Below are positions 476-30,949 of a DNA stretch of 64,000 nucleotides, one piece after another. The position numbers were made by a program, and so were the translations under genes. The stretch is taken from the NCBI GenBank assembly GCA_041661305.1, contig JBAZUR010000002.1:10621-74620 (forward strand). The letters are read 5' to 3'. The stretch comes from Minisyncoccota bacterium (GTDB taxonomy: Bacteria > Patescibacteriota > Minisyncoccia > Phycocordibacterales > VMEP01). The notes below the pieces were generated by a model. It was not told the origin of the DNA and searched no databases. It saw only the letters and a program-made list of their open reading frames with translations. Within the stretch, counting starts at the first letter, position 1, and the number at the start of each line of letters is the position of its first letter.

Positions 476-964
476 ATGAATACAGAAGAAATAAAAAAAA
501 TAATAGAGGAAACCCTTAAAAAACTCACGACTACTTTTGAGGAAGTTGAAATAAAAAAGGAAGATGATGGTTCTTATATTTTTTCAATTAAAACAAATGA
601 TGTTGATTTTCTTGTTGGTAAAGATGGTACTTCCCTCCTCTCTTTAAATCACCTCATCAAAAGAATGGTTGACCAAAGTTTAAGTAAGACAAAATCAGAC
701 GAACAACTCTCTTTTATTGTTGATGTAAACGGATACCAACAAAGAAAAATTGATGATTTAAAAAATAAAGCAAAAATGATGGTGGAAAGAGCGCGCTTTT
801 TTAAATCAAGTGTTGAGCTTGAGCCAATGTCGTCTTATGAACGAATGGTTGTTCATACCTTTCTAAAAACGTTACCAGATATCAAAACAGAATCTATTGG
901 TGTTGGTAGTGAACGAAGAGTTGTTGTTAAATACACAGAACCATCCAGTCTCGCCTCTCTTTAA
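476..964 (+). CDS. jag: Jag/KhpB-like RNA-binding protein with KH and R3H domains
   Basis: 162 aa, starting immediately after yidC. The C-terminal region carries an R3H-like motif (ERMVVHTFLK...GSERRVVV). Confidence 0.65.
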   Translation: MNTEEIKKIIEETLKKLTTTFEEVEIKKEDDGSYIFSIKTNDVDFLVGKDGTSLLSLNHLIKRMVDQSLSKTKSDEQLSFIVDVNGYQQRKIDDLKNKAKMMVERARFFKSSVELEPMSSYERMVVHTFLKTLPDIKTESIGVGSERRVVVKYTEPSSLASL

Positions 965-970: not shown

Positions 971-2218
971 CTAGAGAGACAAAAGCCAAAGAGAGTTATC
1001 TGTTTTGTTTATAAAAACAAATTTATCCCCATTTTGATTTATTTGTGGTGAGGTAACATCTATTTGTTCTCTTGAAATTTCTCGCAGGTTTGCTAGTTGG
1101 TCTGTTGCACCAGACTCAGTATCAATTTTCCAAACGGTATCAGAAAAACTGATCAATCCTTGGTACCACGAATCAGGGTAGCCACCAGGTACTCTTGGTG
1201 TAGTTTCTGGAACAGCACAATAAGTGCTTATGTTATTTGAAGACCAAACACATTTTTCAGAGAGGGTTGCTAAGCCAAGAGAATAGGTAGTTTTTGTTTT
1301 TTTGTTAAAAACAGATAAAGATAACCCACCTTCGTTATTTTCTGAAAAAACAGCACGATTTCCATCCGGGGAAAGTAAGGTGGTGAGCCCGTATTTTTTA
1401 CCAATAACTTTTATTAAAGCAGGGTTTTTTACTGTAATAGAGTAATTGAAACCAAAGACAGAAGAAGAAGGTTTTGTGTTAAGGAAAATAACATCACCTT
1501 CTACCCATTGAGGAAGCCACTCTGTGAAAGTAGACTGAAAGATTTGTGACTTTTTTGACCCATCAAAGAAAGAGATGCTTCCAACAGAAGAGTTACCATA
1601 ATTGATTAATGTAAATATTTTTAATTTATCTGGAGAAACAGCTATTTGGTTTATGTTTTCATCGATAAAAGAGCCAACAAGAATACCCTCATCAGAAGTT
1701 GTTGCGCTTGTTTGTATTTTTGCTGAATATGTTTGAATAATATTATCTTCTTCTTTTAGATAGCGGAGTAAAACACTTTCTCCTTTGTCGGAAAAAATAG
1801 CCTCGTGTATTTTTGGAATAGTTGTATTGGTTAAACGCTTACTTTCGAGGGAGGAAGTGTTTATTTCTTGAACGTGACCGTTCTCTTTTTCTACATAACG
1901 GACAATTGTTGAACTTGCTCTCTCAAAGACAATAAAACCAGCAGTCGGACGAGGCGATAATTTTAAAAGTTTCTGTTTTTTTAATTGATTAGTATTTGCC
2001 TCTCCTGTTTGTGTCCCCTCTCCATTGTTTGATACACCATCATTTGTACCACTACCTTTTTCTCTATTATCAAAAATACCAAACGGAGAAAAACTAGAAC
2101 CATTATCGCTTGTACCCAAAATGTTTGAACCACTTCTATTCAAGAAGAACCAACCTGTGCCAGCAAAGGCAACTAAAACAAGAGAAAGGATGATTGCTAG
2201 TGTGGTTTTTGTGGACAT
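971..2218 (-). CDS. Membrane-anchored secreted protein with PD40/TolB-like beta-propeller repeats
   Basis: N-terminal TM helix and a Gly/Ser/Asn-rich linker. The motif SPDG..vF recurs (SPDGNRAVF, SPDKLKIF, NGDKFVF). It is the last gene of the minus-strand cluster. Confidence 0.4.
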   Translation of the reverse strand: MSTKTTLAIILSLVLVAFAGTGWFFLNRSGSNILGTSDNGSSFSPFGIFDNREKGSGTNDGVSNNGEGTQTGEANTNQLKKQKLLKLSPRPTAGFIVFERASSTIVRYVEKENGHVQEINTSSLESKRLTNTTIPKIHEAIFSDKGESVLLRYLKEEDNIIQTYSAKIQTSATTSDEGILVGSFIDENINQIAVSPDKLKIFTLINYGNSSVGSISFFDGSKKSQIFQSTFTEWLPQWVEGDVIFLNTKPSSSVFGFNYSITVKNPALIKVIGKKYGLTTLLSPDGNRAVFSENNEGGLSLSVFNKKTKTTYSLGLATLSEKCVWSSNNISTYCAVPETTPRVPGGYPDSWYQGLISFSDTVWKIDTESGATDQLANLREISREQIDVTSPQINQNGDKFVFINKTDNSLWLLSL

Positions 2219-2226
2219 GTGTTTAT

Positions 2227-3141
2227 TTATGGTGTTGTTACGTGCCAGTGCTCAGAGTTTTCGTTGTAAAAACGAGCACCACCAAAAATACAGGTTTGAC
2301 CAATTGACGAACAATTATTTGGGTTTGTTCTTGTTCCGCTCGCTAGGCCAGTTTTAATTATATACTCAGTTATTTTCGGACCAGAGCTATTTTTACCAAT
2401 ATCGACTATCGGGCGGTTTTCCGCGTGTGTTGCATGTCTCCAAAACTCTGTTCCACCACTTACAACAACAACACAATCAGAACCACAAGCTTTTTTAAGT
2501 GTTCCTAAAAAAGCAATTGTGGAATCAGGGAGCAGTCCGACATTTGTACAGCTTTTTTGGCCATAAACAGTACAAGGGCTCGCATTTATTCCAACGTTAA
2601 GAGTTTTTAATCTATCTCTAACTCTTTGTTCGTCTTTTAGGATTGCGGCGATTCTATCTTTGATTGCTTGTGTAACTGTTGGGTCGCCTCCTATGACACC
2701 GGTAGTACTACGAGTGCCAGCACCAGAAGATACGCTAGGAGTAGTGCCAGTCATTGACGGCGCTGTTTTGGCGATATTTAGATTAAGGCTTACTAAATCA
2801 GGATTTATTGTATATAGGAAAATATAGATACCGAGAGCAAGGATAAGCCCCAAGATTGCTCCCTCAATTTTAGATTTGGCGTCCCCTATTTTAAAAGGAG
2901 ATTCGCTTGCCATATATTGAATTCCTCCGATAACTATTTGGATTACAGCAAGGCCAGCTGCAATACCAATGCCAATTTTAAAAATAAGATTAAGGTAATC
3001 AGAAAAGGATGTTTCGCTATTAATTACAGCAAATTGGTCATTATAAACTCCCGGTTCGAGTAATGTGTATTCTTGCGCGGAAGCAACCCCACAAAAAATA
3101 AAAAACGGAAGGATAGAGAGAAGTAAAAAGAATTTTTTCAT
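2227..3141 (-). CDS. T4SS-associated protein with a VirB2/TrbC-like two-TM hairpin and a C-terminal zinc-peptidase-like domain (VanY/M15 type, putative cell-wall hydrolase)
   Basis: Signal peptide, then two hydrophobic segments split by a short charged loop, which is the pilin-like topology. A Ser/Thr linker follows. The C-terminal domain has an H-x7-D spacing (HATHAENRPIVD) and a terminal SEHWH (ExxH-like) motif, plus 6 Cys. Confidence 0.4.
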   Translation of the reverse strand: MKKFFLLLSILPFFIFCGVASAQEYTLLEPGVYNDQFAVINSETSFSDYLNLIFKIGIGIAAGLAVIQIVIGGIQYMASESPFKIGDAKSKIEGAILGLILALGIYIFLYTINPDLVSLNLNIAKTAPSMTGTTPSVSSGAGTRSTTGVIGGDPTVTQAIKDRIAAILKDEQRVRDRLKTLNVGINASPCTVYGQKSCTNVGLLPDSTIAFLGTLKKACGSDCVVVVSGGTEFWRHATHAENRPIVDIGKNSSGPKITEYIIKTGLASGTRTNPNNCSSIGQTCIFGGARFYNENSEHWHVTTP

Positions 3142-3142
3142 A

Positions 3143-4138
3143 CTAACGTCCTTTAAAGTTTAACATAATATTGCCGACCGCCGAGAGCATTATTTTAGAA
3201 GGATTTGTTACTAGAAGAGAGATGTCTGCAGACCCACTTGTGCCAGATTGCTGTCTTACAATAAGAACCCCGGGATTTAAGTTCTCTGCTTTTACTGGAT
3301 TACCGTTAAGTGACCAGCTGTATTTTATTTTACTACTTGTTTTGTTGTTTGGAGAGAAAAAATATGGCTCAGCTGCTATGGAAAGTTCTTCGTTTGAGAG
3401 AGGAAGTGAACCTGAAAGTGCTTTTCCATATAAAATACCTAAAATAGGATTCTTTTCATAAAATAAAATTTTAGGCTCTACTATTTGAATTACAACTTCT
3501 TCTCTCCCAACTTTAAAATCGGAAGTATTTCTTGCCTCGACTCCTATTTGCTCGCTTTTTTTAAGGTAATCATTTTTTAAAAAAAGCGTGGAAACACCCC
3601 TGCCGGAAAGTGAACCTAAAACTTCAGAATCACGGCGCCATTTGTAAGAAAGCTCACTTGTTTTATATGTACCACCATTACTTTTCCAAATATTAGGAAT
3701 AGCTGTTATTTTTATTGATGATTCCGATGTTGGGAGAGCTTTCCCTTTGTAAAAAGGTGGAGTGTAAACATCCGTTGCCTGCCAAAGTAGGTTGATTTCT
3801 GATGGGTTTACTACCAAAGTTCCTTGTGCGGAGGTATTTCCTAACGTAGCACTAGCTTTTATTGATATTGGTTCACCAACTTCCCCGACCTTAAAAGAAA
3901 CAGATTTTTGACCAACATTTGAAGAAATTTTTTTACCGCCTAAAGACCAGGTTATGTTTGCGAGGTCTAGATTAAAGGAAGAGCTTGAAACTGAGGCTGT
4001 TACCACGTCTTGTGGCTCTGGGATCTCTGGTGAGATTTGAATCAAAAGAGAGGAGGACTGGCTAAACGTTACTAAAGGAAATATTAAAAAACTTAACAAA
4101 AGTAAATTCTTAAAAATAATTTTTTTGTTAAATAACAT
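3143..4138 (-). CDS. Secreted beta-rich hypothetical protein
   Basis: Signal peptide (LLLLSFLIFPLVTFSQS). No recognisable motif. It overlaps its neighbour in the minus-strand operon. Confidence 0.3.
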   Translation of the reverse strand: MLFNKKIIFKNLLLLSFLIFPLVTFSQSSSLLIQISPEIPEPQDVVTASVSSSSFNLDLANITWSLGGKKISSNVGQKSVSFKVGEVGEPISIKASATLGNTSAQGTLVVNPSEINLLWQATDVYTPPFYKGKALPTSESSIKITAIPNIWKSNGGTYKTSELSYKWRRDSEVLGSLSGRGVSTLFLKNDYLKKSEQIGVEARNTSDFKVGREEVVIQIVEPKILFYEKNPILGILYGKALSGSLPLSNEELSIAAEPYFFSPNNKTSSKIKYSWSLNGNPVKAENLNPGVLIVRQQSGTSGSADISLLVTNPSKIMLSAVGNIMLNFKGR

Positions 4139-4547
4139 TTAATTCTTCTACTTTCGTAACTATTTTTTTCAAAAAGATGTGGTTTTCTATGGTGCGCAAA
4201 ACAACAAGACTTAAAGCTGTTGCCGGAATAATATTAACGAAAGGGATTACCTCTATTATAAACTGTCCTGCGAGAACAGCCAACTTCCTTCCAGCATATC
4301 TACCAGTAAAACTAATGCCGTTCATAAATAAATAAAAAAAGAGTGTTATGTTAAAAAAAAATGTAAAGAAAACAGACATAGCCGAGAGAATCATGGTGAG
4401 ATTAAGTAAATCTAAAAGATCTTTGATTAAAGCAAAACCAAGCATAAGCATAAAACCAAAGCCAGTTAACTTTCTACTTTTTGTTAAGCTCCCCTCTCTC
4501 AATAGCTCAACGTTTTGTTTATTTTCTAGTTTTTTTTCTTTATTCAC
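4128..4547 (-). CDS. Small polytopic membrane protein of the T4SS-like cluster
   Basis: 139 aa with 2-3 hydrophobic helices. It lies directly downstream of the VirB4 ATPase ORF. Confidence 0.3.
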   Translation of the reverse strand: MNKEKKLENKQNVELLREGSLTKSRKLTGFGFMLMLGFALIKDLLDLLNLTMILSAMSVFFTFFFNITLFFYLFMNGISFTGRYAGRKLAVLAGQFIIEVIPFVNIIPATALSLVVLRTIENHIFLKKIVTKVEELNVI

Positions 4548-4568
4548 CTGTTTGTATAAATTGGCTTA

Positions 4569-6389
4569 TTACTCAGATTCGGCTGTAGCTAAGTCATTTT
4601 TGGCTTTTTTGATTGCTAGAACTTGCGATGGGTCCGAAGTTATTATCTGGTCTTCGGTGTACGAAGCAACAATTTTTAAAGCCACGTGCTTAAGGCCGGC
4701 AAAGAAGATTCCCTCTCCAACTCCCGATTCAAGAAGAAGATATTTTTCCTCGTCTGTTAAGTTGAAAGTTTTTTGAACCATATCAATAGAAGAAGGAGAC
4801 TGTTTTAAAAGAATTTGTATTGACGAGTTTGTAATAATAGGAAGGCCATATGGAGAATTAAGAAAGTCGCCGACATCTTGAGTAATTGTTGCAAGTCCCA
4901 AGTAATATTTACGGCCACGCTTAGCGATACTGAAAAGAAAAGAAGCTGTATCTTCTGATTTCATCATCCACCAAGCTTCGTCAACTACAAGGAGGCGTTT
5001 TTTAAGATTTTTACGAACAGCATTCCAGATATAGTGAGTAACAATGTACATTGCAACAGGTTTCAACTCATCCTCCATGTCACGCACAGAAAAAACAACG
5101 AATTTTTTGTTGATATCAACATTGGTTGGTTTGTTTATGAAACCAGACCAAGTTCCTTTTGTGTATTTAGATAACTTTTGAAGAAGATCTGCGCTACCGT
5201 CCATTCCAGAAAGGACCATTTCGAAGTCTGAAAGTAGTGGTGGTTCGATCGCAGAAAAGTCTGAATCAGCGGTAATGTCTTTGAGGTTATAAGTTTCCGT
5301 AATTGCGCGGTCGATAAGGGAATCTTCTCCCGGAGAAAGACCTCCGAGCATAATACGAAACAATCCGACGAGATTTACGATATTTGAACGCAAAACATCA
5401 GCAGCTGACTCATCTTCGCGAGGAACTGGAAGATCAAACGGGTTTATGTGGTGGTCTGAAGTAAGAGAAATATTAAAATAACGTCCACCTGTCGCTTCAG
5501 CCAAATATTCATATTCACGCTCTGGGTCGATAACGATAACCTCCGTATCAAACATAAGCGTGCGGATTATTTCAAGCTTGGTAGTGTAAGATTTTCCAGA
5601 ACCAGCCTTAGCAAAAATAATTGAGTTGTAGTTTTCAAGTGAATAACGATCAAAAAGAACAAGACTTGAATTGTGTCTATTTATTCCATATAAAATTCCG
5701 CGATCAGAAGTGAGGTCAAAAGAAACAAATGGGAAAAGAGAAGATAGTGGAGAAGAGTTTAATTTAGAATGGACACCTAGCTCATCTGACGCTATTGGAA
5801 TAACACTTTTAAATCCTTGTTCTTGTTGGAAAAGAGCTGGTTTAACATAAACCATCTTAGATTCAAGGATTGATTTTATTTCGGACTCTATTTTATCAAG
5901 TTCTGCCTCGGTTGTTCCGTATATCGTTAGATATAGACCGACATCAAATATTTTTTCTTGGGCTTGCTGAAGAGAGTCGCGAAGAGATTCTAGGTCTTGG
6001 TATGCAGTATCAAGCATAGGGTCGCGAACCATACCTTTCTCTTCGCGCATATGTATTTGGCTTTGAACCTCAGCAACTTTTTTCTGGAAAGTATGAAGAA
6101 TCTTGGCTGTTTCTATTGGGTGTATAAAAATTGAAACATCAAAAACCTTATCTAGGTTTATGATTGGAGAAAACCAGTTGTCAGCTAAAACTCTCGGATA
6201 AGAAATAACAAAAAAAGTACGCGCTATTTTGTCGCCGAGGTTTAGAGCCCTAGGCTCAATTTTTAAAGCCGAAGGGGCGATAATATCACGAAGCTCAAGT
6301 GTTGCTGCTTGATAGATTTCTTGTGGAAGAATCGGGGTAATTTCCTCCTCTTTTTTTTCATTTCCTGTTATGAAATCAAATATTCCCAT
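4569..6389 (-). CDS. virB4: VirB4/TrbE/CagE-family T4SS ATPase, ATPase portion (C-terminal two-thirds of VirB4)
   Basis: Walker A motif AKAGSGKSYTTK and Walker B motif LLVVDEAWWM. The region GLATITQDVGDF is also VirB4-like. Confidence 0.85.
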   Translation of the reverse strand: MGIFDFITGNEKKEEEITPILPQEIYQAATLELRDIIAPSALKIEPRALNLGDKIARTFFVISYPRVLADNWFSPIINLDKVFDVSIFIHPIETAKILHTFQKKVAEVQSQIHMREEKGMVRDPMLDTAYQDLESLRDSLQQAQEKIFDVGLYLTIYGTTEAELDKIESEIKSILESKMVYVKPALFQQEQGFKSVIPIASDELGVHSKLNSSPLSSLFPFVSFDLTSDRGILYGINRHNSSLVLFDRYSLENYNSIIFAKAGSGKSYTTKLEIIRTLMFDTEVIVIDPEREYEYLAEATGGRYFNISLTSDHHINPFDLPVPREDESAADVLRSNIVNLVGLFRIMLGGLSPGEDSLIDRAITETYNLKDITADSDFSAIEPPLLSDFEMVLSGMDGSADLLQKLSKYTKGTWSGFINKPTNVDINKKFVVFSVRDMEDELKPVAMYIVTHYIWNAVRKNLKKRLLVVDEAWWMMKSEDTASFLFSIAKRGRKYYLGLATITQDVGDFLNSPYGLPIITNSSIQILLKQSPSSIDMVQKTFNLTDEEKYLLLESGVGEGIFFAGLKHVALKIVASYTEDQIITSDPSQVLAIKKAKNDLATAESE

Positions 6390-6394
6390 GGTAT

Positions 6395-7057
6395 TTATTG
6401 ATTGAGCTTGATAGCTTTTTCTGTCTCTCCTGGATTAAAAATTTTATAAAAAACCTCGATAACCTCTTCGGTTCCAAGCTGGACAGCTCTAACTCCAAAA
6501 CGAGATAGCCCCTGAGCAACCACTGAGACACGCTGGTCAAGCTGTGAACGACTTTCTTCAAAAAGTTCTGTTTCAGCGATACGGGACTCCGCGGTTGGTT
6601 CTTTATTTCCCGTCATTCCTGGAATCGGAGGAAGTGAAAAACCACTACTACCCTTCCCTCCAATAGATGGGGCGCTATAAGGAACCACTATAAAAAAGTT
6701 TTTAGTCATAATGTTTCTTGTTTCAGCAAGGTTTTTTATAAAATCAATATATTCTCGAGTCTGTATTTTAAGAAGATCTTCTAATTGTTCTTTCATTCTG
6801 TCTTCAAGCATTGTTATGTATGGCTTTATGTCTAGCTTGCGAGATTGAATGAATATTTGAATTGAGAAATCCAATGAGTTTAAAAAACCTTGGAATTGTA
6901 AAATAGTAGCAGTCTGCTCGTCTTCTGATTTTAAAGCGAGATTTAAAGAAGAAGTCATGATTAGCGCCCTCAAAGAGCCGTCTTTTAAAACAACAACGCC
7001 ATCGCGTACTTCTTTAATAGGAACAAAATCTTGAGCTGCTTTAGATTGAATAGCCAT
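6395..7057 (-). CDS. virB4: VirB4 N-terminal domain encoded as a separate ORF (split VirB4)
   Basis: The stretch DFVPIKEVRDGVVVLKDGSLRALIM...EDEQTATILQFQGFLNSL matches the conserved VirB4/TraC N-terminus. It stops 5 nt before the ATPase ORF starts, and the two ORFs are in different frames. Confidence 0.55.
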   Translation of the reverse strand: MAIQSKAAQDFVPIKEVRDGVVVLKDGSLRALIMTSSLNLALKSEDEQTATILQFQGFLNSLDFSIQIFIQSRKLDIKPYITMLEDRMKEQLEDLLKIQTREYIDFIKNLAETRNIMTKNFFIVVPYSAPSIGGKGSSGFSLPPIPGMTGNKEPTAESRIAETELFEESRSQLDQRVSVVAQGLSRFGVRAVQLGTEEVIEVFYKIFNPGETEKAIKLNQ

Positions 7058-7155
7058 TGGTTATTTGTGGTTAGTATAGCAAATAGACACTAAAATGTAT
7101 GTTCACAAGGCTCTTTACTTCTTTTTTTCACGAGAAAAAACTCCTTTTTGTGAAA

Positions 7156-7578
7156 TCATTCTTCTTTGCTCGTGGTTAAAACATCAAGACCCCAAGAGAG
7201 ATCTTTTAGTTTACTATCAGAGAGGCGCGGAACCAAAGAATTGTCAGTGTCACCCTTCTTTGCTTTTTTTGTTATCTCCATTGGCCGATTTTCTTTTTTC
7301 CAAATATATAGTTTTTCTCCGAGGTAGTAGCGAAAAGCTGCCTCAACGCTGTAAATGAACGGTTTGTCATTTATTTTATAAAATGCAAAAGCAACTGCGA
7401 GGGCTACTATAGGAATCACAAAAAATAGAGTAATTACTAAAGGAAGAAAGCTGTCTAGTATTTTATACACAACAAAAGCCATTCCCGCTCCACCAGCTAG
7501 GTAAATAAATTGTTTAAAAGTAAATGGACCAAAAATCTTATCCTCTACTTCAATAAATTGCGGAACATGAAACTGCAT
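7156..7578 (-). CDS. VirB3-like / PrgI-family small T4SS membrane protein
   Basis: 140 aa. The N-terminus ...EDKIFGPFTFKQFIYLAGGAGMAF is followed by two TM helices, which is the PrgI/TcpE-like pattern. It sits immediately upstream of virB4. Confidence 0.5.
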   Translation of the reverse strand: MQFHVPQFIEVEDKIFGPFTFKQFIYLAGGAGMAFVVYKILDSFLPLVITLFFVIPIVALAVAFAFYKINDKPFIYSVEAAFRYYLGEKLYIWKKENRPMEITKKAKKGDTDNSLVPRLSDSKLKDLSWGLDVLTTSKEE

Positions 7579-7626
7579 TTAATTAGTATAGCGTACTATT
7601 AGATGTTTTAAAGTTGTTTAGGTTTT

Positions 7627-7718
7627 TATTTTTCTCTTTAAAAACACGTATAAAAATCTGCTGATTTTTTACTATACTCACGCCGTCGCGTTGCGTAATG
7701 TTTTTAAGGAGAAAAACT
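7627..7718 (-). promoter_or_regulatory. Copy A of a conserved ~90-nt element (IR-bracketed, promoter-like or structured 5' leader), upstream of the VirB3-like gene
   Basis: Shares CATTACG-17nt-GAGTATAGTAAA...TCAGCAGA...TTATACG with copies B and C. The flanking 18-20 bp inverted repeat and two internal hairpins co-vary between copies. Confidence 0.5.
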
Positions 7719-7791
7719 AGAGCTGAAGAAAAAGAAAGCAATACGAAGCCAAACTTCATAACAACGATTATCAGAATCATTGTTTCTGGAA

Positions 7792-8526
7792 TTAGATTTG
7801 TTCTCGATATGGATCCAGTTGGTACTTTGTCTCTTTTTTAGGAAGAGCGAAAGAGTCTGTTAGTTTTTGTTCAACTATATCAATTGGCGTAGAAGCACTT
7901 TCCTTTGCAGTAGAATTTTTTTCCTCGAGAACAGGTAGAACTTTTTGTGAAGAAATTTGGGGAATAGTTTTACCTGAAGAAAGTTCTCTTTCCGGTGTGA
8001 TTAATGGATTTTCAACGTCATTTAGTACATTTTCTCTTATAAGACTTTCGTTTTCTTCGGTTTCCATGTGCTTGTCTTCACTTACAATTTCAACACCACT
8101 TTCTTTAAATATGGTTTTATCAACAGGGTTTAGTGCGGTTTGCTCAAGTACATTATTTTGTGGAACATCTTCTCTGTATGCATCATGTTTTACTTCAACT
8201 AGCTCGGTTTCGCCATGTACCTTTTTTAACGATTCACGAATTGAACCAAAAATTTGCTCATTTATATCGTGGACAATTAAGCCGGCGATATCGTGAGTCA
8301 CACCAAGCTTTGACTCCACTACCCCCAAAAAATCTTTTGGGTTTGTTATGCCAAACATAACCAAGTTTGTTTCATCAACCAAGATTGTTAACTTATCAAT
8401 ATGGAGAGAGTATTTTGATCCAATTTCTCTAATTTTTTTACCAGTATCAAAACCAAAAAGAACATCTTTCACATCGTCTGGGAGATGCTCGAGCATTTGT
8501 TCAAGTTGTTGGTTTGTGTAGTTCAT
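7792..8526 (-). CDS. Acidic soluble hypothetical protein of the T4SS-like cluster
   Basis: 244 aa ORF with no TM segment and no recognisable motif. Confidence 0.3.
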   Translation of the reverse strand: MNYTNQQLEQMLEHLPDDVKDVLFGFDTGKKIREIGSKYSLHIDKLTILVDETNLVMFGITNPKDFLGVVESKLGVTHDIAGLIVHDINEQIFGSIRESLKKVHGETELVEVKHDAYREDVPQNNVLEQTALNPVDKTIFKESGVEIVSEDKHMETEENESLIRENVLNDVENPLITPERELSSGKTIPQISSQKVLPVLEEKNSTAKESASTPIDIVEQKLTDSFALPKKETKYQLDPYREQI

Positions 8527-8541
8527 CTTAAAAGTAATTTT

Positions 8542-10962
8542 TTACTTACCCTCTGTTTTTTTATTATCTTCTCTTGCTTTCATCCTTTCAAGACTTTCTA
8601 CAAATCTTTGGAGATTTCTTGCGTTATTTTTTGCTGTTTCTCTTTCAAATAGTAGTTTTGCGCGATCATTCTTATCTCCACGGTCGCCGAGTTCGTCGAG
8701 TTTCATTTGTATATTTATTGACTCTTTTGTAAATGAATCAATGGCTTCTTTCACAGATTGGTTGCTCCCCATCAAACTTTTTATCGTTCCTTCAAGTTTA
8801 GATATTTCTTGGTCAGATTTATATTTTGAGCCGATTTCTTTCTCTGCTTTTTTGGTTGCCCCGGCATTACCAAATTTTATTGCCTGTGGAATAATCTCCC
8901 CACCTTCAATATAGTTTTTATTTTTTAGTTGTTCAAAATATGATTTTTGGCGTTCTTGTGTTACCACCCTATTCTTTGCCTCTTCCGACGATTTAATTTC
9001 ACCCTCAATAATTGAAGACTTGTCGGTTTGCTTAAATTTCTCCAGCCTTAGAGCAAGTTGCTCCTTATCGTTTTTGCCGGCTTTTTCTGCGTCAGTTAAT
9101 TTAACATTATCGAGAATCTTTTTATCTGCAGCTTTTTTAGCCACCGCCTTTTCTTCCTCAGTTAACTTAACTGTTTTGGCTTCTAGTAGCTTTGCGATAT
9201 CAGCACGTTCTTTACCGCGTTCTTTTTCGGCACGGTCAAGGTCTCCGCGGAAACCATCCGTAAGATCTTTTGGTTTTTGTCCTAGGTCAACCTTGGCGCC
9301 AGTTGCCCCAGCAAGTTTAGAACCCAATCCTCCAATAAGTGGTGTTTCACCGGCGGCGCGAACATCAAAACTAGACTTAGCTACTCCTACGGTACTTTGT
9401 AGAGCTAGGCGAGCAAATCTATTATTTGAAGCCGCAGACTTAGCCCATTCTTGGTTGGCGACCCAAGAGGCCCCTGCTCCAACTGTTCGCCTAGCTATCA
9501 AACCGCCAGCTCCGCCAGCAAGTGCTCCTGCCCCGACAGACAGCATCCCAGAAATTTTTGATCCCGCTGATCCGCTTAGCTCTCGTGTGGTTTTAACTGC
9601 TGCGAGCAAAAGTCCTATCGCAATCAAAAAACTAAAGATTACACCAACGGTATTTACGTCTGGGGAAGTAAGCGCACTCGCCATGTTTGAACCAGATACA
9701 TTTTCTGTATATGTCGTAACAGTAGAACTTACACCTCCGCTTGCGGTTAACGCAGCGGCTAGATTTGTATTTTCTGTGTAGGTTGCAACGGTAGATTTCA
9801 TGCTTCCCGTGGTAGCTACAGAGGAAGCGCTATTTAATCCGTTATTTCCACCACCAAGAATTATTAGAATCATCCACATAAACATAAGGAAAACTGGAGC
9901 CACAAGAACTTGCTCCCAGAGTTGATCCCACCACATCTTGGAGTACTTGGCTGTTTTTGGGATAAGACCAGCTACGTAGGCAAATGGTGAAAGAGGAAGA
10001 AGAAGGATGAGGATTATTGCGCGCGACAAAAAGATAAACGCAACTGAAAGAAAAGAAAAAGCAGTAATAAGAATAAAAATCACACCCATTAACGAGATAG
10101 TTAATATTTGGAAAAAATCAACAGAGTTGGAGGCAAAAACCGATTGTATTTTTGTTAGTTGGAAAAACTTATCAGATATTCCCCCAGCGGAAAAGTTTCC
10201 AGTTTGAGAGGGGTCTATAATTCCTGAATAAAATTGAAAAGCTACAATGTTTGAGGTATCAATAATGACTTTAGTAAAAAAGAGGCTGAAGTTTATTAAA
10301 AGAGCGGCGATTATAATGCTTGGAATTAATTTTTTACCATCACCTATTTGAAGAATGTTTTGTATTGAAATCCAAAGGAGAGCAAAAATAAAAATAATAT
10401 TCGACATATCGCGAATAGTTCCCCAAGCAAGATTAATCCCAGGAGTTTTCTGTATAAATTCAGCCATGTTTAGGTTGAATTTAATTGATTGATTAAGTAA
10501 TACGCTGGCAAGGTCAAGAAACCAACTACTGAGCCATAGGGCGCTGTTTCCAAACCATACAGTTGTACATCTCATAGCGTTCCCTGTAGCTAAAGCGCTC
10601 CAAGTACCACAATCAAGTTTTACGTTTTCATTAGCAGTTCCGTCAAAAGCCGAGGCGGGTAAAGCTTTTGAAGTTTCTACTTGAATACAATTTAAGTATG
10701 CACCTGAATTCCCGTCTTTAAGATAAGCACAAGCTTGTTCTGGGTTTGCCGAAGAGCTTAGTGCGTCTGTTTGATTATCTCTGTTTTGAATATCTTCCTG
10801 GAGAATACAAGGTCCCCCATTTGGGTCTTCTACATAAGGAGCTTCACAGCTTTGCGCTTCCGCAACATTATTTCCAAGCAATGGTGGTAAAACAAAAAAC
10901 AAAAAAGCAAAAAATAATATTGCTGAGGAGTAGAATATTTTTTTTGAAAAAAAAGATTTCAT
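8542..10962 (-). CDS. VirB6/TrbL-like polytopic membrane protein with a long charged C-terminal tail (TcpH-like architecture)
   Basis: Signal peptide and a Cys-containing exo-domain, then at least 6 TM helices and a Gly-rich region. The C-terminal tail of ~300 aa is Lys/Glu-rich and coiled-coil. At 806 aa it matches the size of Gram-positive VirB6 analogues. Confidence 0.45.
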   Translation of the reverse strand: MKSFFSKKIFYSSAILFFAFLFFVLPPLLGNNVAEAQSCEAPYVEDPNGGPCILQEDIQNRDNQTDALSSSANPEQACAYLKDGNSGAYLNCIQVETSKALPASAFDGTANENVKLDCGTWSALATGNAMRCTTVWFGNSALWLSSWFLDLASVLLNQSIKFNLNMAEFIQKTPGINLAWGTIRDMSNIIFIFALLWISIQNILQIGDGKKLIPSIIIAALLINFSLFFTKVIIDTSNIVAFQFYSGIIDPSQTGNFSAGGISDKFFQLTKIQSVFASNSVDFFQILTISLMGVIFILITAFSFLSVAFIFLSRAIILILLLPLSPFAYVAGLIPKTAKYSKMWWDQLWEQVLVAPVFLMFMWMILIILGGGNNGLNSASSVATTGSMKSTVATYTENTNLAAALTASGGVSSTVTTYTENVSGSNMASALTSPDVNTVGVIFSFLIAIGLLLAAVKTTRELSGSAGSKISGMLSVGAGALAGGAGGLIARRTVGAGASWVANQEWAKSAASNNRFARLALQSTVGVAKSSFDVRAAGETPLIGGLGSKLAGATGAKVDLGQKPKDLTDGFRGDLDRAEKERGKERADIAKLLEAKTVKLTEEEKAVAKKAADKKILDNVKLTDAEKAGKNDKEQLALRLEKFKQTDKSSIIEGEIKSSEEAKNRVVTQERQKSYFEQLKNKNYIEGGEIIPQAIKFGNAGATKKAEKEIGSKYKSDQEISKLEGTIKSLMGSNQSVKEAIDSFTKESINIQMKLDELGDRGDKNDRAKLLFERETAKNNARNLQRFVESLERMKAREDNKKTEGK

Positions 10963-10965
10963 TTT

Positions 10966-13206
10966 TTAATAGTATGTGTTTTGGTTTCTTCCTTCTCTCT
11001 CTAATCTTTCTTTTTCTAAAATTGCCTGGTGCTCTGTCTGACAATTACTAAAAGCACTCGAGGCGGTATCTCTAATTGCTCTTATTTCAGAAAACTGCGA
11101 TGCCGCGGTTTCGGCCATATCAGGAGTTGGAACTCCATCTGAGCCGGAAATTGCCACGAGTGAATATGAAGCTGTCTGGAAATCAGTTCTTCCAGAAGTG
11201 ATAGCTTCCTTTAGTGCTGCGAAAGGAATTATTTTTAAAGAGATGGCACCAATCTCTCTTTCTAGTTTGCTTATTAAATCATTGTAGTATGTTTGTTGAG
11301 CAAAAAGTGAAGGTGAACTCAATTGACTATCCAAAGTGCTTGGGCAATAAGTTGCTGGGCTAAAGGATATTAAGGCGCTAGTAGTTGAAGCAGCTTCATG
11401 CACAACATTTAGTGTTTCATTACGTATACCAAGGTATCCCGCAAAAGCATTAGTTGTGTTATCTATACTAGCGACAATGTCGTTGATTGAATTAATTTCT
11501 TGGGTTCGACTCGCTTGGTTATTGGCAAGATTATCGTCAGTGTAGGAAAAGAAAGAACTTTCGGCTAAAGACTGTGCTAACGCGCGGTCTTGTGGAGAAA
11601 CATCTTCGTTTGAGTTTGCGTCTATGTTTGAAACGTTTCTCGATGGAGCGGTTGCTGCGGCGCGAAGCCTCTCCTCTATTGTTGAGGCTGGTGTTGTTAT
11701 TTTGGTCTTACGACAAGCACCAGGGACGACATCAGCACCTGTATCCAAACACTCCTTTATTGGGGGGACTCCGTCTTTTGCCTCTATCTTTGCGGCTTCC
11801 TCGGCTTCTGAGAGAGAAGAACCCAAATCTTCGCTTACTCGTAGGTAGTTTGCTGCAACGTTATTTTGAGAAGCCAAAACAAAACATTTAATAGAAGAAC
11901 AAACCGAGGTGTCACCATTTCGGTATCTTGTGGCATTTGTTGCGCCAATAGCTTTTGCCAGCGGATCTTCGTATTTCGCTATTCTGCCTGCAGCTGTTTC
12001 TGATTGTTGTGAAGCGATAACTGCTTTTATGTTTTCTTCTCTATAAGGAGAATTAGTTTTAGATAAATCAGAGACAAAAATCCTTGTTTGGTTTTGTGCT
12101 TGTTTTGCAAGGTAGTCATTAAAGTTTGTTAGATACAAAGGGTTGCCATTATTCCCAGTGTTTAACCACTTCATTTCATTTTCTTGCATTTTGGCGATCG
12201 TAATACGTGAGCTTGTGTAAGCTATTCTGTCTAAACAAGTCTGTTTTGTTTTAAGAGTAGATGTATCTTGTTGCAAAGTGTTTATTTGTTTAACGATTGT
12301 TTGTGGGTCTGTTGGCACTGTTCCACCCCCGCCGAGCAAAGAAAGAACACTCCCTACTCCAGGAAGAGCAGACCCAGCTCCACCGAACACGCTCCCCAGC
12401 TCTCCCGCAGTGTATCCTGCAGACATTCCACCCAAAGTATTTCCAAGGCTAACAAGAGAGCCAGAGCCAATTTCTGCTCCAAGATTAACAAGCATGCTTC
12501 CAGTATTATTTACTACCCCAGATAGTAGGTCGCTAGATAAAACACTAGTTACTATTTTGTCAGCACCACCGACAACATTTTGAATTGCTCCGTTAATACC
12601 ACTATTAACACCTCCAATTTGACCGTTTATATTATTCAGTGCTTCGTTAATAACACCGTTTGCTTTATTTTCTAGTGCGGTACCAACTTGGCCAGCTATT
12701 TTTCCTGCCGTGTTTCCAATGACACCACCGCCCAAAGCTTCATTAACAGACCCAGAAGCTTTTGCTCCAAGGCCGTTTATCCCTGCACTACTTAAAAGTT
12801 GCTGTCCAAGAGAGGAAAGAGTACTACTTACAGCTCCTCCGACAGCGCTACACCCTGAATCGGCAAGGTTTTTGGCAAGAGCTTCATTTGCTGTGTTTAA
12901 GGAAGCCGTTTTTATTCCCGTGGATAGCGTAACGCAACTGTTTGATTCATCGTAAATACCAGATGGACACGATTGAGCCGAAGAGGCCTCTGTTGAAGGG
13001 ACATAAGCTCCGGTTGCAGGGTTGTAGTATGAATCTGTGTAATCCGAAGTTCGAACATTTTCGCCTGTTGCTGGATTATAATATTCGTTTGTTTGCGCTC
13101 TAGTTATGTTTGTAGTTGAAAAGAAAGAAGAAACAACAAACAAATAAATAAGAAATATTGAAATTGTTTTTTTAACCATATTCCTTTTAGCAGAAAATAG
13201 AACCAT
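10966..13206 (-). CDS. Large secreted/surface protein with YYNPATG repeats and a long Gly/Ser/Ala/Asn-rich low-complexity region
   Basis: N-terminal TM/signal segment. The motif Y(Y)NPATG(E/A)(N/Y)V occurs three times. About 250 aa are of GxxG/SxxG type. The C-terminal domain is globular. Confidence 0.35.
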   Translation of the reverse strand: MVLFSAKRNMVKKTISIFLIYLFVVSSFFSTTNITRAQTNEYYNPATGENVRTSDYTDSYYNPATGAYVPSTEASSAQSCPSGIYDESNSCVTLSTGIKTASLNTANEALAKNLADSGCSAVGGAVSSTLSSLGQQLLSSAGINGLGAKASGSVNEALGGGVIGNTAGKIAGQVGTALENKANGVINEALNNINGQIGGVNSGINGAIQNVVGGADKIVTSVLSSDLLSGVVNNTGSMLVNLGAEIGSGSLVSLGNTLGGMSAGYTAGELGSVFGGAGSALPGVGSVLSLLGGGGTVPTDPQTIVKQINTLQQDTSTLKTKQTCLDRIAYTSSRITIAKMQENEMKWLNTGNNGNPLYLTNFNDYLAKQAQNQTRIFVSDLSKTNSPYREENIKAVIASQQSETAAGRIAKYEDPLAKAIGATNATRYRNGDTSVCSSIKCFVLASQNNVAANYLRVSEDLGSSLSEAEEAAKIEAKDGVPPIKECLDTGADVVPGACRKTKITTPASTIEERLRAAATAPSRNVSNIDANSNEDVSPQDRALAQSLAESSFFSYTDDNLANNQASRTQEINSINDIVASIDNTTNAFAGYLGIRNETLNVVHEAASTTSALISFSPATYCPSTLDSQLSSPSLFAQQTYYNDLISKLEREIGAISLKIIPFAALKEAITSGRTDFQTASYSLVAISGSDGVPTPDMAETAASQFSEIRAIRDTASSAFSNCQTEHQAILEKERLEREGRNQNTYY

Positions 13207-13211
13207 AGTTT

Positions 13212-14156
13212 TTACGGCTGTGTATTATTAAGTATAACACCACTTTTAAAATATATCTCTAGTGTTTTAGCGGTTTCTACCAATTTATTGCTATAGGAAA
13301 GATATTGATTAAGACCGTTCATCGAAAGAAGAGGGTCGGAAAAAATTTGCCCGACAATTTTCAGAGAATCAGCCGTTCCTCGGTAGTTATTTATCAGATC
13401 AAGGTGAAGCTCTGCTATTTTTTCTGGAACCGCGATTTCCACGGTGTCCTTGGCTATGTTTGTGTAGGCGTTTATGTAAGGAACTAGTTTTGTTTGCAAT
13501 GTTTGGTCGCTAGTTTCAAGAGAGGTAGAGATTACTGTGATTTCTTGTCCTAGGTTATATTTCGAATATTTTTGGATTACCGTTCCAAGATTTTTGCTGT
13601 AAGCTAAAATTTCTGCATCACTGGCGTTTTTTATAACAGTGAGGTCGTTTATTGTGTATAGGGGGCGTATCTCCTCTTGTTTTATGTTGGAATATATAAT
13701 TTTTGCGGTTTCTCGTACTGTTTCTGGGTCAAATTTTCCAGCGTTTTTAAGAGCTGAAGCTGCCACAAAAAACTGCTGACCGAACTGATCTGTCGCAGAG
13801 GTTGTAATCTCTCCACTCGTGGTATTTTTAGCCACATTTTGTTTATGAACTTCAGTTCCGTCTAATATTCCGTTGTTATTTGAGTCTTTATTGTTCGGAT
13901 CTGTACCATAAAGTGCTTCCTCCCAGTCTTTTAGTCCATCCTTATCACTGTCTTTGTTTATTAAATCTGCGACGGAGTCGTTTACCCCACCATTAATAAC
14001 CAAAACACCTTGTTCTTCTTGTTTTGTTTCTGTAATTAGTGGATTAGAAACTCCTTTGTTGGAAAAAACAGATAAACTTATAATTGTTAACCCTAAAATA
14101 GATGCGGCAACTAATTTTTTGTTCTTAAGAAAGTTTCGCACGGATTGAGAATTCAT
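13212..14156 (-). CDS. Secreted protein with thrombospondin type-3-like Ca-binding repeats; first gene of the minus-strand cluster
   Basis: Signal/TM segment. DSDKDGLKDWEEALYGTDPNNKDSNNNGILDGTE fits the D-x-D-x-D-G-x-x-D pattern. Confidence 0.4.
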   Translation of the reverse strand: MNSQSVRNFLKNKKLVAASILGLTIISLSVFSNKGVSNPLITETKQEEQGVLVINGGVNDSVADLINKDSDKDGLKDWEEALYGTDPNNKDSNNNGILDGTEVHKQNVAKNTTSGEITTSATDQFGQQFFVAASALKNAGKFDPETVRETAKIIYSNIKQEEIRPLYTINDLTVIKNASDAEILAYSKNLGTVIQKYSKYNLGQEITVISTSLETSDQTLQTKLVPYINAYTNIAKDTVEIAVPEKIAELHLDLINNYRGTADSLKIVGQIFSDPLLSMNGLNQYLSYSNKLVETAKTLEIYFKSGVILNNTQP

Positions 14157-14344: not shown

Positions 14345-14683
14345 ATGAGAAAAATGTTTCTTTTTCTGTTTCTAGGACTAATGTCGTTTTTGATTGCCTC
14401 ACCTTTATCTGTTAACGCCGCCTCAGTCTTTGGTGGAAGAATAATGAGTGTGATTCCTTGCACCTGCTCTCCTGGAATGGCAGTAATAGTCGGTCCTCCA
14501 CGCCCAGCAATCCTTCTTTATATTCCGGGAGCTTCTCGTTTATTTAGGTACGGAAGAATAATGCCCGGAGTGTGGTCATTAGGAGATTATTCTTCTGGCG
14601 GTACTTGTATGCAGATTGCTGGAAAAACTTGCGCCCCATACCCTCCAATACAAGGAACAATACTCAAAATAGGAACGTCATAA
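14345..14683 (+). CDS. Small secreted Cys-containing hypothetical protein
   Basis: An ATG lies inside the listed 14327 ORF and starts MRKMFLFLFLGLMSFLIASPLSVNAAS, a signal peptide. A TTGTTATATAAT -10-like box lies just upstream. Confidence 0.35.
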   Translation: MRKMFLFLFLGLMSFLIASPLSVNAASVFGGRIMSVIPCTCSPGMAVIVGPPRPAILLYIPGASRLFRYGRIMPGVWSLGDYSSGGTCMQIAGKTCAPYPPIQGTILKIGTS

Positions 14684-29223: not shown

Positions 29224-29295
29224 GCCCCCGTAGTGAAATGGATATCACGACAGTCTTCGAAACTGTTATTCCAGGTTCGAATCCTGGCGAGGGCA
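29224..29295 (+). tRNA. tRNA-Arg (anticodon TCG)
   Basis: Cloverleaf: acceptor GCCCCCG/CGAGGGC with one C-A mismatch at 5-68, D arm GTGA..TCAC, anticodon arm ACAGT-CTTCGAA-ACTGT, T arm CCAGG-TTCGAAT-CCTGG. No CCA is encoded. A promoter-like TTGATA-16-TATGAT lies at 29174-29201. Confidence 0.6.
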
Positions 29296-29482: not shown

Positions 29483-29551
29483 TCTTTTATTGACGTAACC
29501 TCTATATTATTTGAACTTATTTAAAACTCTGTTAAAATACACCGATAAATT

Positions 29552-30930: not shown

Positions 30931-30949
30931 AATGTAGCTAAGTGGGTTT

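Follow-up and report, generated by a model that had tools for sequence, protein, structure and literature searches.

The chromosomal T4SSs of the Patescibacteria (CPR) have been surveyed by Quinonero-Coronel et al. (2025, Microbial Genomics; PMC12102498), who report the component set discussed here near dnaA, rnpA, rpmH, and ksgA, with relaxases absent, and distant VirD4 homologues in many Patescibacteria. [quoted passage not shown] In a cultivated relative, tubular structures reach toward the host (bioRxiv 10.64898/2026.06.21.733656).

We analyzed a cluster of genes at positions 971-14156 (minus strand) of a stretch of 64,000 nucleotides, hereafter the window, and find it to be a typical copy of the system published in 2023-2025; the machine is already known and is not new. 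With a probability of about 90%, the cluster represents the chromosomal Patescibacteria T4SS in its Paceibacteria form, derived from the MPF-FATA conjugation machinery of monoderm bacteria and repurposed for host-dependent life. The initial annotation had read these genes as a minimal Gram-positive-type T4SS, lacking relaxase and coupling protein and set in the chromosome among housekeeping genes, that would probably serve host interaction in a reduced-genome episymbiont, in agreement with the published work (PMC12102498, PMC10633639, PMC12857230). Common to the window cluster and the published system are VirB4 with a separate TrsD, PrgI/VirB3, VirB6, and a PF18895 VirB2-like pilin, a chromosomal location, and no relaxase nearby, and the Paceibacteria systems have the same neighbors as the window cluster (dnaA, rnpA, rpmH, and ksgA, which is rsmA). 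The Saccharimonadia T4SSs, in contrast, carry arrays of 2-11 bare pilin genes, with separate peptidase or lysozyme genes downstream of virB4, whereas the window locus and most of its Paceibacteria relatives have one pilin gene each, usually with a C-terminal extension. The conserved accessory genes, for the TSP3, 746-aa, acidic, Ig-repeat, and TolB-like proteins, are unnamed in the text of PMC12102498 and in the supplements consulted, and neither swappable pilin enzyme domains nor the C-terminal domain family described below were found in PMC10633639 or PMC12102498.

The cluster consists of 11 tightly packed genes and one doubtful ORF, and the intergenic gaps of -11 to 98 nt fit a single operon. 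All of the ORFs originally listed are present at their reported positions on the minus strand, and the housekeeping flanks were likewise recovered, with yidC/jag on one side and rsmA, together with pcrA, on the other. The dnaA gene lies to the left, ~3 kb from the start of the window, and yidD, rnpA, and rpmH are also found just beyond that start. The closest VirB4 relatives all come from Paceibacteria/Parcubacteria MAGs. By TM scan, 10 ORFs out of 12 have signal or TM segments, or 9 if only the 11 credible genes are counted. The doubtful ORF (7583..7780, minus strand; 65 aa), absent from the earlier list, has a hydrophobic N-terminus, no tblastn match in 80 related loci, and no Pfam match; in other loci no comparable small ORF separates the acidic-protein gene from prgI, and the two genes lie <140 nt apart in most. 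This ORF may be spurious. VirB4, the PrgI/VirB3-like protein, and the VirB6/TrbL-like protein are cytoplasmic-membrane translocon parts, and beside them stand one VirB2-like pilin and six more predicted envelope proteins.

Profile searches confirm VirB4 and the PrgI/VirB3-like protein. The PrgI/VirB3-like protein (7156..7578, minus strand; 140 aa), a two-helix membrane hairpin with two TM-like segments in the TM scan, matches PF12666 with an E value of 1.5e-11 and 45.1 bits, against a gathering cut-off of 27, and has an orthologue in 77 of the 80 loci at a median identity of 51%. The TrsD-like protein (6395..7057, minus strand; 220 aa) represents the VirB4 N-terminal domain, which here has a gene of its own: its NCBIfam matches are to TrsD/TraD (7e-9), to positions 102-233 of the Mbov_0397 VirB4, and to positions 2-119 of the CD1110 VirB4. 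Because this ORF is separate in 78 of the 80 loci (209-223 aa, with three outliers of up to 272 aa), the split of VirB4 is not a frameshift. The VirB4 ATPase itself (4569..6389, minus strand; 606 aa) corresponds to the C-terminal two-thirds of a canonical VirB4, matching positions 183-732 of the 752 in the NCBIfam CD1110 family (3e-112; 376 bits, cut-off 325) as well as Pfam P-loop_TraG (3e-26). The translation shows both Walker motifs, A (AGSGKS) and B (LLVVDE), to be intact, and identity across the 80 Paceibacteria loci is 78-85%. The proposals of a VirB4 with N-terminal domain plus ATPase and of a PrgI/VirB3-like partner thus both hold, and HMM searches uphold the VirB3-like call directly and the VirB6-like call through homologues, so that VirB4 is not an isolated ATPase.

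The 806-aa polytopic membrane protein at 8542..10962 (minus strand) had been called VirB6-like, a call now supported indirectly, through its homologues and its predicted fold. Its features are a signal sequence, an extracellular N-terminal region that contains Cys, at least five TM helices (TM scan), and the long, charged C-terminal tail of an "extended VirB6." The protein itself has no Pfam match; PF04610 (TrbL) is matched by 7 of its 51 syntenic orthologues, and the homologues P0080 (36.5 bits) and P0009 (26.3 bits) exceed the TrbL/VirB6 gathering score of 25.9. In the AF2 model, residues 115-370 form a core with pLDDT >90, for which the top five Foldseek matches in the PDB are all TrwI/VirB6 chains of the R388 T4SS. 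The best of these, 8rt9_F, has a weak E value of 1.2e-2, with prob 1.00 and TMt 0.44. Sequence and model together support a VirB6/TrbL-like assignment.

The single pilin gene (2227..3141, minus strand; 304 aa) encodes a VirB2-like pilin joined to a C-terminal enzyme-like domain; the pilin assignment comes from orthologues and the AF2 hairpin. After a Sec signal (cleavage ASA|QE) come a pilin helical hairpin at 46-112, which the AF2 model shows, a disordered Thr/Ser/Gly linker at 124-152, and an alpha/beta C-terminal domain of 150 aa. The pilin domain scores 24.2 bits against PF18895, under the cut-off of 26.6, and the protein matches the Mbov_0395 pilin-like NCBIfam family at 1e-3. Among 58 syntenic orthologues, PF18895 is matched by 45 and TrbC/VirB2 by 3, and NCBI labels a protein identical to this product "pilin." Of the pilin-like/peptidase fusion proposed in the initial annotation, the pilin part is supported indirectly, and the peptidase part is better described as a candidate.

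That candidate rests on a pattern of conserved residues. Invariant in the C-terminal domain are E232, H239, D247, H298, and H300 (H-x7-D...H-x-H), accompanied by four conserved cysteines (C190, C198, C219, and C223) and a GGTE motif. The zinc site of M15 enzymes is H-x(6)-D...H-x-H, and H239-x7-D247 with H298-x-H300 resembles the site of the LAS-type zinc peptidases (M15/VanY/D-Ala-D-Ala carboxypeptidase, with the Sonic hedgehog N-domain fold). Real VanY or Peptidase_M15_4 domains occupy the equivalent position in related loci, and Sonic hedgehog itself is a weak Foldseek match of the C-terminal domain (rank 21, E 0.79). The four cysteines and the GGTE motif are not known to be associated with M15, and neither fold (Foldseek) nor profile (HMM, hhalign) comparisons returned a significant enzyme match. 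Membership in the LAS-type peptidases is thus not established. The domain family counts 1,899 representatives and has no Pfam model; among 114 members scanned, 70 are fused to PF18895, and 5 of the members also carry an SLT domain. Homologues of the pilin module are fused to VanY, Peptidase_M15_4, SLT, YkuD, NlpC/P60, and 3D domains, so cell-wall-enzyme domains are evidently swappable on this module in related genomes. We infer a peptidase or muralytic activity for the C-terminal domain, a candidate zinc peptidase whose target would be the cell wall.

The first gene of the cluster (13212..14156, minus strand) encodes a 314-aa protein with an N-terminal anchor or signal (TM-like segment 15-33), two TSP3-type calcium-binding repeats (DSDKDGLKDWEEALYGTDPNNKDSNNNGILDG), and, after the repeats, a conserved C-terminal domain of ~200 aa. 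Its own TSP3_bac score of 23.8 bits falls slightly below the cut-off of 25; a profile of 34 syntenic orthologues matches Bap (E 9e-7), lanmodulin, and calmodulin in their calcium-binding regions, indirect support for the TSP3 repeats of the initial annotation. An orthologue is present in 36 of the 80 related loci. The 746-aa secreted surface protein that follows (10966..13206, minus strand) combines a signal sequence with two YYNPATG repeats, a stretch rich in Gly (21% between residues 100 and 300), and a core, at ~300-510, that is conserved. A word-index search recovered only 9 homologues; jackhmmer joins 32 of the 37 ORFs that related loci have in the same place, flanked by the TSP3 and VirB6 genes, and the protein is, judging from sequence, fast-evolving. 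Its orthologues carry F5/8 type C (6), Ig-like (2), and DUF4141 (2; best E 1.3e-5) domains, and DUF4141 genes adjoin traJ/traG in Bacteroides conjugative transposons (PMC10434189). The 746-aa protein is a candidate adhesin; that it is a VirB5/TraI-like partner of VirB6 is a weak lead, and profile searches of the PDB gave no match.

Among the remaining accessory proteins, the acidic cytoplasmic protein (7792..8526, minus strand; 244 aa, pI 4.8) has no TM segments and may function as an adaptor or in assembly. Its N-terminal domain (~120 aa) is conserved, and so, almost without exception, is a C-terminal DPYRE motif, with D238 invariant and P239, Y240, and E242 nearly so; an orthologue occurs in 43 of the 80 loci, no Pfam or NCBIfam match is convincing (HopW1-1 is sub-threshold, E 0.084), and no PDB relative was found. 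The small polytopic membrane protein (4128..4547, minus strand; 139 aa, with 3-4 TM helices by TM scan) has no family match in Pfam or NCBIfam; a poorly conserved protein with 2-5 TM segments lies between virB4 and the gene for the 331-aa protein in ~35 of 68 loci, and the 139-aa protein is a variable accessory component. The secreted or anchored 331-aa protein (3143..4138, minus strand; signal or anchor 7-25) has an orthologue in 76 of the 80 loci and consists of three repeats of ~105 aa with invariant W64, W167, and W275. Its profile has weak matches to Ig-like capsid decoration proteins (Hoc, 9e-4), and Pfam gives sub-threshold PKD matches; the repeats are thus weakly Ig-like or PKD-like. 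The last gene (971..2218, minus strand) specifies an anchored or secreted 415-aa protein with a TM-like segment at 7-25 and an invariant cysteine pair (C323 and C334); an orthologue is present in 64 of the 80 loci. When a profile built from 56 orthologues is compared with the PDB, each of the 12 best matches is a TolB propeller (E 2e-3 to 6e-2), and one family member matches PD40 and one DPPIV_N; weak as the TolB matches are, they lend indirect support to the PD40 propeller proposed earlier, and the protein is probably a TolB/PD40-like beta-propeller.

Set against the MPF-FATA T4SSs (pGO1 Trs, pCF10 Prg, pIP501 Tra, CTn2/CD1110, and the Mycoplasma ICE Mbov_0395-0397), the cluster has a VirB4 that fits the CD1110 family, a separate TrsD as in pGO1, PrgI, a VirB6-like protein with a long C-terminal tail, and a pilin-like protein resembling Mbov_0395 of the Mycoplasma ICE. 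It differs in having a VirB2-like pilin, which is normally missing from Gram-positive systems, and in having no relaxase, T4CP, PrgB-type adhesin, mobile-element borders, or recognizable VirB8-like component (PrgL/TraM) in the cluster. As in the MPF-FATA systems, a cell-wall hydrolase, here a candidate one, accompanies the cluster. The PrgK, TraG, and CwlT hydrolases have a simple TM anchor; here the hydrolase-like domain is instead joined to a pilin module. With the VirB/Trw (MPF-T) systems of R388 and Agrobacterium, the cluster shares a VirB6-like core that superposes best on TrwI/VirB6, a VirB2-type helical-hairpin pilin, and a large secreted-protein gene directly upstream of virB6, which parallels the virB5-virB6 order, but it has no VirB7/9/10 outer-membrane core, VirB11, or VirD4.

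We propose that VirB4, docked on VirB3 and VirB6, would drive extraction and polymerization of the pilin, passage of macromolecules through a VirB6 channel, or both. Given the topology of the pilin, the enzyme-like C-terminal domain would lie outside the cell, tethered by a flexible linker, where it could cut peptidoglycan, either of the cell's own wall for passage of the machine (the role of VirB1) or of the host's. Spanning of the wall and adhesion would fall to the TSP3 and Ig-repeat proteins, the propeller, and the variable 746-aa protein. A Pfam scan of the large ORFs of the window (outside the cluster, those of at least ~230 aa) turned up no relaxase or T4CP, in keeping with the initial annotation; either could be encoded elsewhere in the genome. 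Because no relaxase or coupling protein lies nearby, the substrate should not be conjugative DNA, and the most likely role would be that of a contact-dependent conduit or pilus for exchange of macromolecules with a host cell, by which nucleic acids or nutrients might be imported or effectors exported.

A dedicated DNA or nucleic-acid uptake machine, like the Helicobacter pylori ComB T4SS or archaeal Ced, feeding a cell unable to make nucleotides, is possible if rather unlikely. As in ComB, relaxase and T4CP are missing, and the ATPase weakly matches the NCBIfam models of the CedB and CedD DNA-import ATPases (1.9e-9 and 3.4e-4, far under their cut-offs). Import of DNA or other macromolecules has been proposed (PMC12102498; PMC11665869), and a cultivated relative reportedly feeds on the RNA of its host, with VirB4 suggested to belong to the macromolecule-transfer machinery (bioRxiv 10.64898/2026.06.21.733656). 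Uptake, however, is a sub-hypothesis of the main explanation and not a different architecture, neither the substrate nor the direction of transport is readable from sequence, and the window already encodes the classical uptake route, with PilB/PilC of a type IV pilus at 41-44 kb and ComEC at 52.6 kb. Southlakia can dispense with comEC but needs its T4SS (PMC12857230), an observation that is no proof for or against import by way of the T4SS.

Equally tentative is a protein-effector translocator or adhesion pilus that exports enzymes or toxins, the pilin-borne hydrolase domain included, to open the host envelope. The diversity of cell-wall-active domains fused to the pilin module in relatives fits such a role, as do the carbohydrate-binding F5/8 type C and Ig-like domains, adhesin-like, of the 746-aa orthologues, and effector delivery has been a matter of speculation (PMC11665869; PMC10633639). 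We found no recognizable effector genes or secretion signals, however, and no coupling protein for substrate recruitment; hydrolase domains adjacent to T4SSs are usually explained as VirB1-like, opening the cell's own wall, and the C-terminal domain is a putative enzyme.

An integrative conjugative element or its remnant, moving DNA between cells with relaxase, coupling protein, and oriT beyond the window, is highly improbable. In its favor, ICEs of Firmicutes and Mollicutes have conjugation proteins homologous to VirB4, TrsD, PrgI, and VirB6, the window has a tyrosine recombinase gene at 25587-26513, and relaxases occur in ~100 Patescibacteria genomes, but the recombinase is XerC/D-like and sits 11 kb off amid housekeeping genes, the GC content of the cluster matches that of its flanks, the left side runs on into yidD-rnpA-rpmH-dnaA and the right into rsmA-pcrA, no integrase, repeats, or tRNA were found at the borders, and a relaxase was near only 15 of 2,474 virB4 genes in the published survey (PMC12102498).

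Gene order in related genomes argues for the repurposed chromosomal T4SS. The order rsmA-TSP3-(746)-VirB6-acidic-PrgI-TrsD-VirB4-331-pilin-propeller-(jag)-yidC, with the same housekeeping flanks, is shared by ~40 full-length loci from different Paceibacteria MAGs, each of another GTDB species; jag was detected next to yidC in ~18 of them. This recurrence, with dnaA ~3 kb away, identifies a vertically inherited chromosomal machine and not a mobile element, and the chromosomal, non-conjugative reading of the initial annotation is sustained. In the same genome pairs, identity is 80% for VirB4, 54% for PcrA, 48% for RsmA, and 40% for YidC, a comparison of sequences that points to strong constraint on VirB4.

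The initial annotation had described a 13-kb minus-strand cluster of T4SS-like genes (971-14156) and read it as a chromosomal, relaxase-less system, and the positions, tight packing and flanks of its open reading frames (ORFs) bear that description out. The window, with a GC content of ~38%, is densely filled by housekeeping genes, and no shift in composition was seen between the cluster and its flanks. Twelve co-oriented ORFs, spaced by -11 to 98 nt, occupy the minus strand between jag (476-964, plus strand) and rsmA (14693-15475, minus strand). The sole ORF that we added to the original list, of 65 aa at 7583-7780, was dropped as a cluster component: related loci have nothing equivalent, and it is unlikely to be a gene. 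A promoter and terminator scan proved uninformative, since promoter-like sites were fewer in the cluster (25) than in shuffled sequence (32.8).

VirB4 is encoded by two genes, whose products match separate parts of the CD1110 model, an NCBIfam family of VirB4-like conjugal ATPases. The ATPase (4569-6389, minus strand) reaches 376 bits, above the cut-off of 325, over model positions 183 to 732, and its Walker A (AGSGKS) and Walker B (LLVVDE) motifs, read from the translation, are intact. The TrsD-like VirB4 N-terminal domain (6395-7057, minus strand; TrsD/TraD, 7e-9) also matches VirB4 models N-terminally, at positions 2 to 119 of CD1110 and 102 to 233 of Mbov_0397. Because the same separate ORF, nearly always of 209 to 223 aa, is present in 78 of 80 related loci picked by VirB4 similarity, the split is no sequencing artefact. 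The PrgI/VirB3 protein (7156-7578, minus strand), a two-helix hairpin in a transmembrane scan, reaches 45.1 bits with PF12666, whose gathering cut-off is 27.

More than 588 relatives of VirB4 occur among species-representative genomes, the best 80 of these being 78 to 85% identical; the lineage-named records among those 80 are mostly Paceibacteria/Parcubacteria, with Nomura-, Taylor-, Kaiser-, Campbell- and Zambryskiibacteria represented. By sequence, VirB4 appears to be MPF-FATA-related and of the Patescibacteria clade. Within the same genome pairs, its identity of 80%, a figure somewhat inflated by the choice of loci on VirB4 similarity, is far above that of the housekeeping neighbours PcrA (54%), RsmA (48%) and YidC (40%); TrsD stands at 60% and PrgI at 51%.

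The identity of the 806-aa VirB6-like protein was reached solely through its homologues and its fold. The protein itself has no Pfam or NCBIfam match, its profile returned only coiled-coil noise from the charged tail when searched against PDB sequences, and direct family assignment was abandoned. Seven of 51 syntenic orthologues match TrbL/VirB6, and two database homologues, P0080 and P0009, score 36.5 and 26.3 bits against a TrbL gathering score of 25.9. In the AlphaFold2 model, residues 115-370 form a helical core of high confidence (pLDDT >90); its best five PDB matches are all chains of TrwI/VirB6 from the R388 machine (E 1.2e-2, probability 1.00, TM 0.44 on the target). With at least five predicted transmembrane helices and a long charged tail, the protein is an "extended VirB6", a VirB6/TrbL homologue encoded near virB4. 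The initial annotation had made its interpretation depend on the VirB3-like and VirB6-like calls, and the interpretation survives, given a PrgI score above cut-off and the evidence of TrbL orthologues and fold.

Pfam searches of the 12 cluster ORFs and of 27 other window ORFs of at least 149 aa found neither a relaxase nor a coupling protein (T4CP), as had been claimed for the window. Comparison with related genomes revealed the same gene order and flanks in ~40 loci with full flanks: rsmA-TSP3-(746)-VirB6-acidic-PrgI-TrsD-VirB4-331-pilin-propeller-(jag)-yidC. A contig carrying an identical propeller gene runs on into yidD, rnpA, rpmH and dnaA. The cluster occupies a chromosomal site without an adjacent relaxase, near dnaA, rnpA, rpmH and ksgA as in Paceibacteria, and the 11-gene module keeps its order beside the dnaA-rpmH region in many species. 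No tRNA gene lies within 15 kb of the cluster, and a tyrosine recombinase (25587-26513) is surrounded by housekeeping genes. We reject a mobile element on the synteny across ~40 genomes, the shared flanks and the unshifted composition; an ordinary ICE is ruled out within the reach of the window by the lack of relaxase and T4CP among the ORFs scanned and by the housekeeping surroundings of the recombinase.

The cluster is an already described Patescibacteria T4SS and not a new kind of system. Wang et al. (2023) found that Southlakia epibionticum cannot grow epibiotically without an unusual T4SS, which resembles Gram-positive conjugative systems and has pilins but no recognisable relaxase or coupling protein (PMC10633639). 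That requirement is known for that organism only (PMC10633639). Patescibacteria are very abundant and for the most part uncultured, and few machines besides this T4SS have been shown to be indispensable to their epibiotic life. A survey of 2,474 Patescibacteria virB4 genes (Quinonero-Coronel et al. 2025) lists VirB4, TrsD, PrgI/VirB3, VirB6 and PF18895 pilins as components, with relaxases almost absent, places the Paceibacteria systems near dnaA, rnpA, rpmH and ksgA, and proposes import of DNA or other macromolecules (PMC12102498). A 2025 review counts the Patescibacteria systems as a new superfamily branch (PMC12857230). Since all three publications describe the same system, the interpretation of the cluster as a chromosomal, relaxase-less T4SS is supported and the finding is known; the locus is a clean, complete Paceibacteria example. 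In those texts and the available supplements we found no mention of the conserved accessory gene set, of modular pilin-enzyme fusions, or of the unmodelled domain family that ends the pilin fusion.

The 304-aa pilin fusion (2227-3141) scores 24.2 bits against PF18895 (T4SS_pilin), just under the cut-off of 26.6. At the same position, PF18895 is matched by 45 of 58 orthologues and TrbC/VirB2 by 3 of 58, and NCBI names an identical protein "pilin". In the AlphaFold2 model, a signal helix is followed by a two-helix hairpin of high confidence (residues 46-112), a linker predicted to be disordered (124-152) and an alpha/beta domain, again confident (158-304). Together with the orthologue matches, this identifies a VirB2-like pilin (PF18895/PF04956) near virB4. 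Histidine-kinase look-alikes, which dominated when Foldseek compared the whole model with the PDB, are seen as artefacts of the arrangement of hairpin and alpha/beta domain, and a BFVD search with the model returned nothing.

The alpha/beta C-terminal domain (C-domain) belongs to a family of 1,899 cluster representatives at E ≤ 1e-3 and usually sits at the C-terminal end of proteins of ~300 aa. A scan of 114 members detected a PF18895 module in 70 and, in addition, an SLT transglycosylase domain in 5; no Pfam model covers the C-domain itself. Residues T199, C219, E232, H239, D247, H298 and H300 are invariant over the 114 members, and the metal-type residues combine an H-x7-D spacing (H239, D247) with H298-x-H300. 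The zinc site of peptidase M15 has H-x6-D spacing. An assignment to LAS or peptidase M15 found no significant profile or fold match, and hhalign against VanY domains and two PDB profile searches were likewise non-significant. In other genomes the same pilin module carries VanY, Peptidase_M15_4, SLT, YkuD, NlpC/P60 or 3D, and these fusions to cell-wall-enzyme domains strengthen the suggestion that the C-domain may be an enzyme.

A single pilin-like gene is present in 58 of 64 Paceibacteria loci. Some extension is carried by 63 of 70 pilin ORFs, judging from a length of at least 200 aa (median 351), and a C-domain of the type in the window is found in only 8. In VirB2 topology, a C-terminal extension falls outside the membrane. 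The pilin module nearly always bears a variable extracellular extension, often a recognisable cell-wall enzyme.

Among the accessory proteins, that of 314 aa has two TSP3-type calcium-binding repeats. For the 746-aa protein (10966-13206), word-index search found just 9 homologues; an iterative profile search unites 32 of the 37 ORFs that other loci have between their TSP3 and VirB6 genes, which makes it a component that is conserved although it evolves fast, its core spanning about residues 300-510. Its orthologues bear F5/8 type C and Ig-like modules, and 2 of 37 match DUF4141 (best E 1.3e-5), genes for which adjoin traJ and traG in Bacteroides conjugative transposons (PMC10434189). A VirB5/TraI-like identity is a weak lead; profile searches of the family against the PDB returned no VirB5-type match and only coiled-coil-type noise. 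The same noise alone came from the 244-aa acidic protein, which has a conserved N-terminal domain and a nearly invariant DPYRE at its C-terminus. The 331-aa protein consists of three weakly Ig-like repeats with one invariant Trp in each. For the 415-aa protein (971-2218), the 12 top PDB profile matches are all TolB propellers, weak at E 2e-3 to 6e-2, and PD40 is matched by 1 of 56 family members. About half of the loci encode a positional analogue of the 139-aa membrane protein.

From the observed parts list, predicted locations and conservation we infer the steps of a mechanism. VirB4/TrsD, seated on PrgI and VirB6, would energise pilin extraction, substrate passage or both, and the pilin-borne domain and secreted partners would handle the cell wall and adhesion. 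Because neither relaxase nor T4CP was found among the window ORFs scanned, the substrate would not be conjugative DNA; we give import and export roughly equal weight. We further put at roughly one in five the chance that the pilin is a modular carrier, that the T4SS builds an enzyme-studded filament or patch, and that the 746-aa protein is its tip adhesin. The single VirB2-like pilin of Paceibacteria would then be no plain fibre subunit: its hairpin module would present, on a flexible linker, swappable extracellular domains (VanY/M15, SLT, YkuD, NlpC/P60, 3D, Ig-like), among them the previously unmodelled H-x7-D...H-x-H family of ~1,900 cluster representatives. A filament or membrane patch so armed with cell-wall enzymes would cut the host envelope, and the fast-evolving 746-aa protein, as a VirB5/TraI-like tip adhesin, would fix host specificity. 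The synteny, the VirB4 conservation and the pilin extensions offer starting points for asking how the machine crosses or attacks cell walls.

Between the cluster and rsmA lies a divergent gene (14345-14683, plus strand) for a secreted, Cys-containing 112-aa protein starting MRKMFLFLFLGLMSFLIASPLSVNA; in 9 related loci a homologue is encoded upstream of the cluster, adjoining rsmA where rsmA was mapped. A secreted protein with two LysM domains and Peptidase_M23 (17813-18832, plus strand) is encoded 3.6 kb from the cluster, and in 5 related loci the gene has the same relative place, beyond pcrA. M23/LysM proteins have been noted in the literature as VirB1-like candidates of Patescibacteria. A few related loci have a small gene inserted between the acidic gene and prgI (L001:8512-8930, L010:7809-8249, L052:8480-8891 and L033:8435-8798). 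Three of these carry an ORF of 120 to 125 aa starting MEKINSYKDLIVWQKS, which we take to resemble the four-helix-bundle "23S rRNA-intervening-sequence" proteins, and one carries a GIY-YIG-like ORF (MFYYTYILKSKKDGKLYTGSTNDL); they look like small selfish insertions within the operon.

Elsewhere in the window, type IV pilus/competence genes (41192-47140, plus strand) include a PilB-like T2SSE ATPase (41192), a PilC-like T2SSF protein (42952) and several small ORFs that are possible pilins. With ComEC (52571-54226, plus strand) and RecJ (49587-51311, plus strand) also encoded, a classical DNA-uptake route exists beside the T4SS. The 433-aa ORF that ends the pilus block (45839-47140, plus strand) and a 327-aa ORF (37649-38632, minus strand) have no Pfam match. 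Gene strand flips at ~40600, from nearly all minus over 1-40.5 kb (bar jag and yidC) to nearly all plus from 40.7 kb, and cumulative GC skew is flat to ~30 kb and rises after it; a replication origin near 30-41 kb, and not at dnaA ~3 kb left of the window, would fit. DnaA-box matches (21 vs 15.8 expected) are neither enriched nor clustered, and give no grounds for placing an origin within the window. Four tRNA genes (Arg-TCG, Gly-GCC, Pro-TGG and Gly-TCC) are spread across 3 kb at 29224-32241, interspersed with short ORFs and a gene for a trypsin-like protease, and GC skew in the window peaks in the bin at 30-32 kb (0.24).
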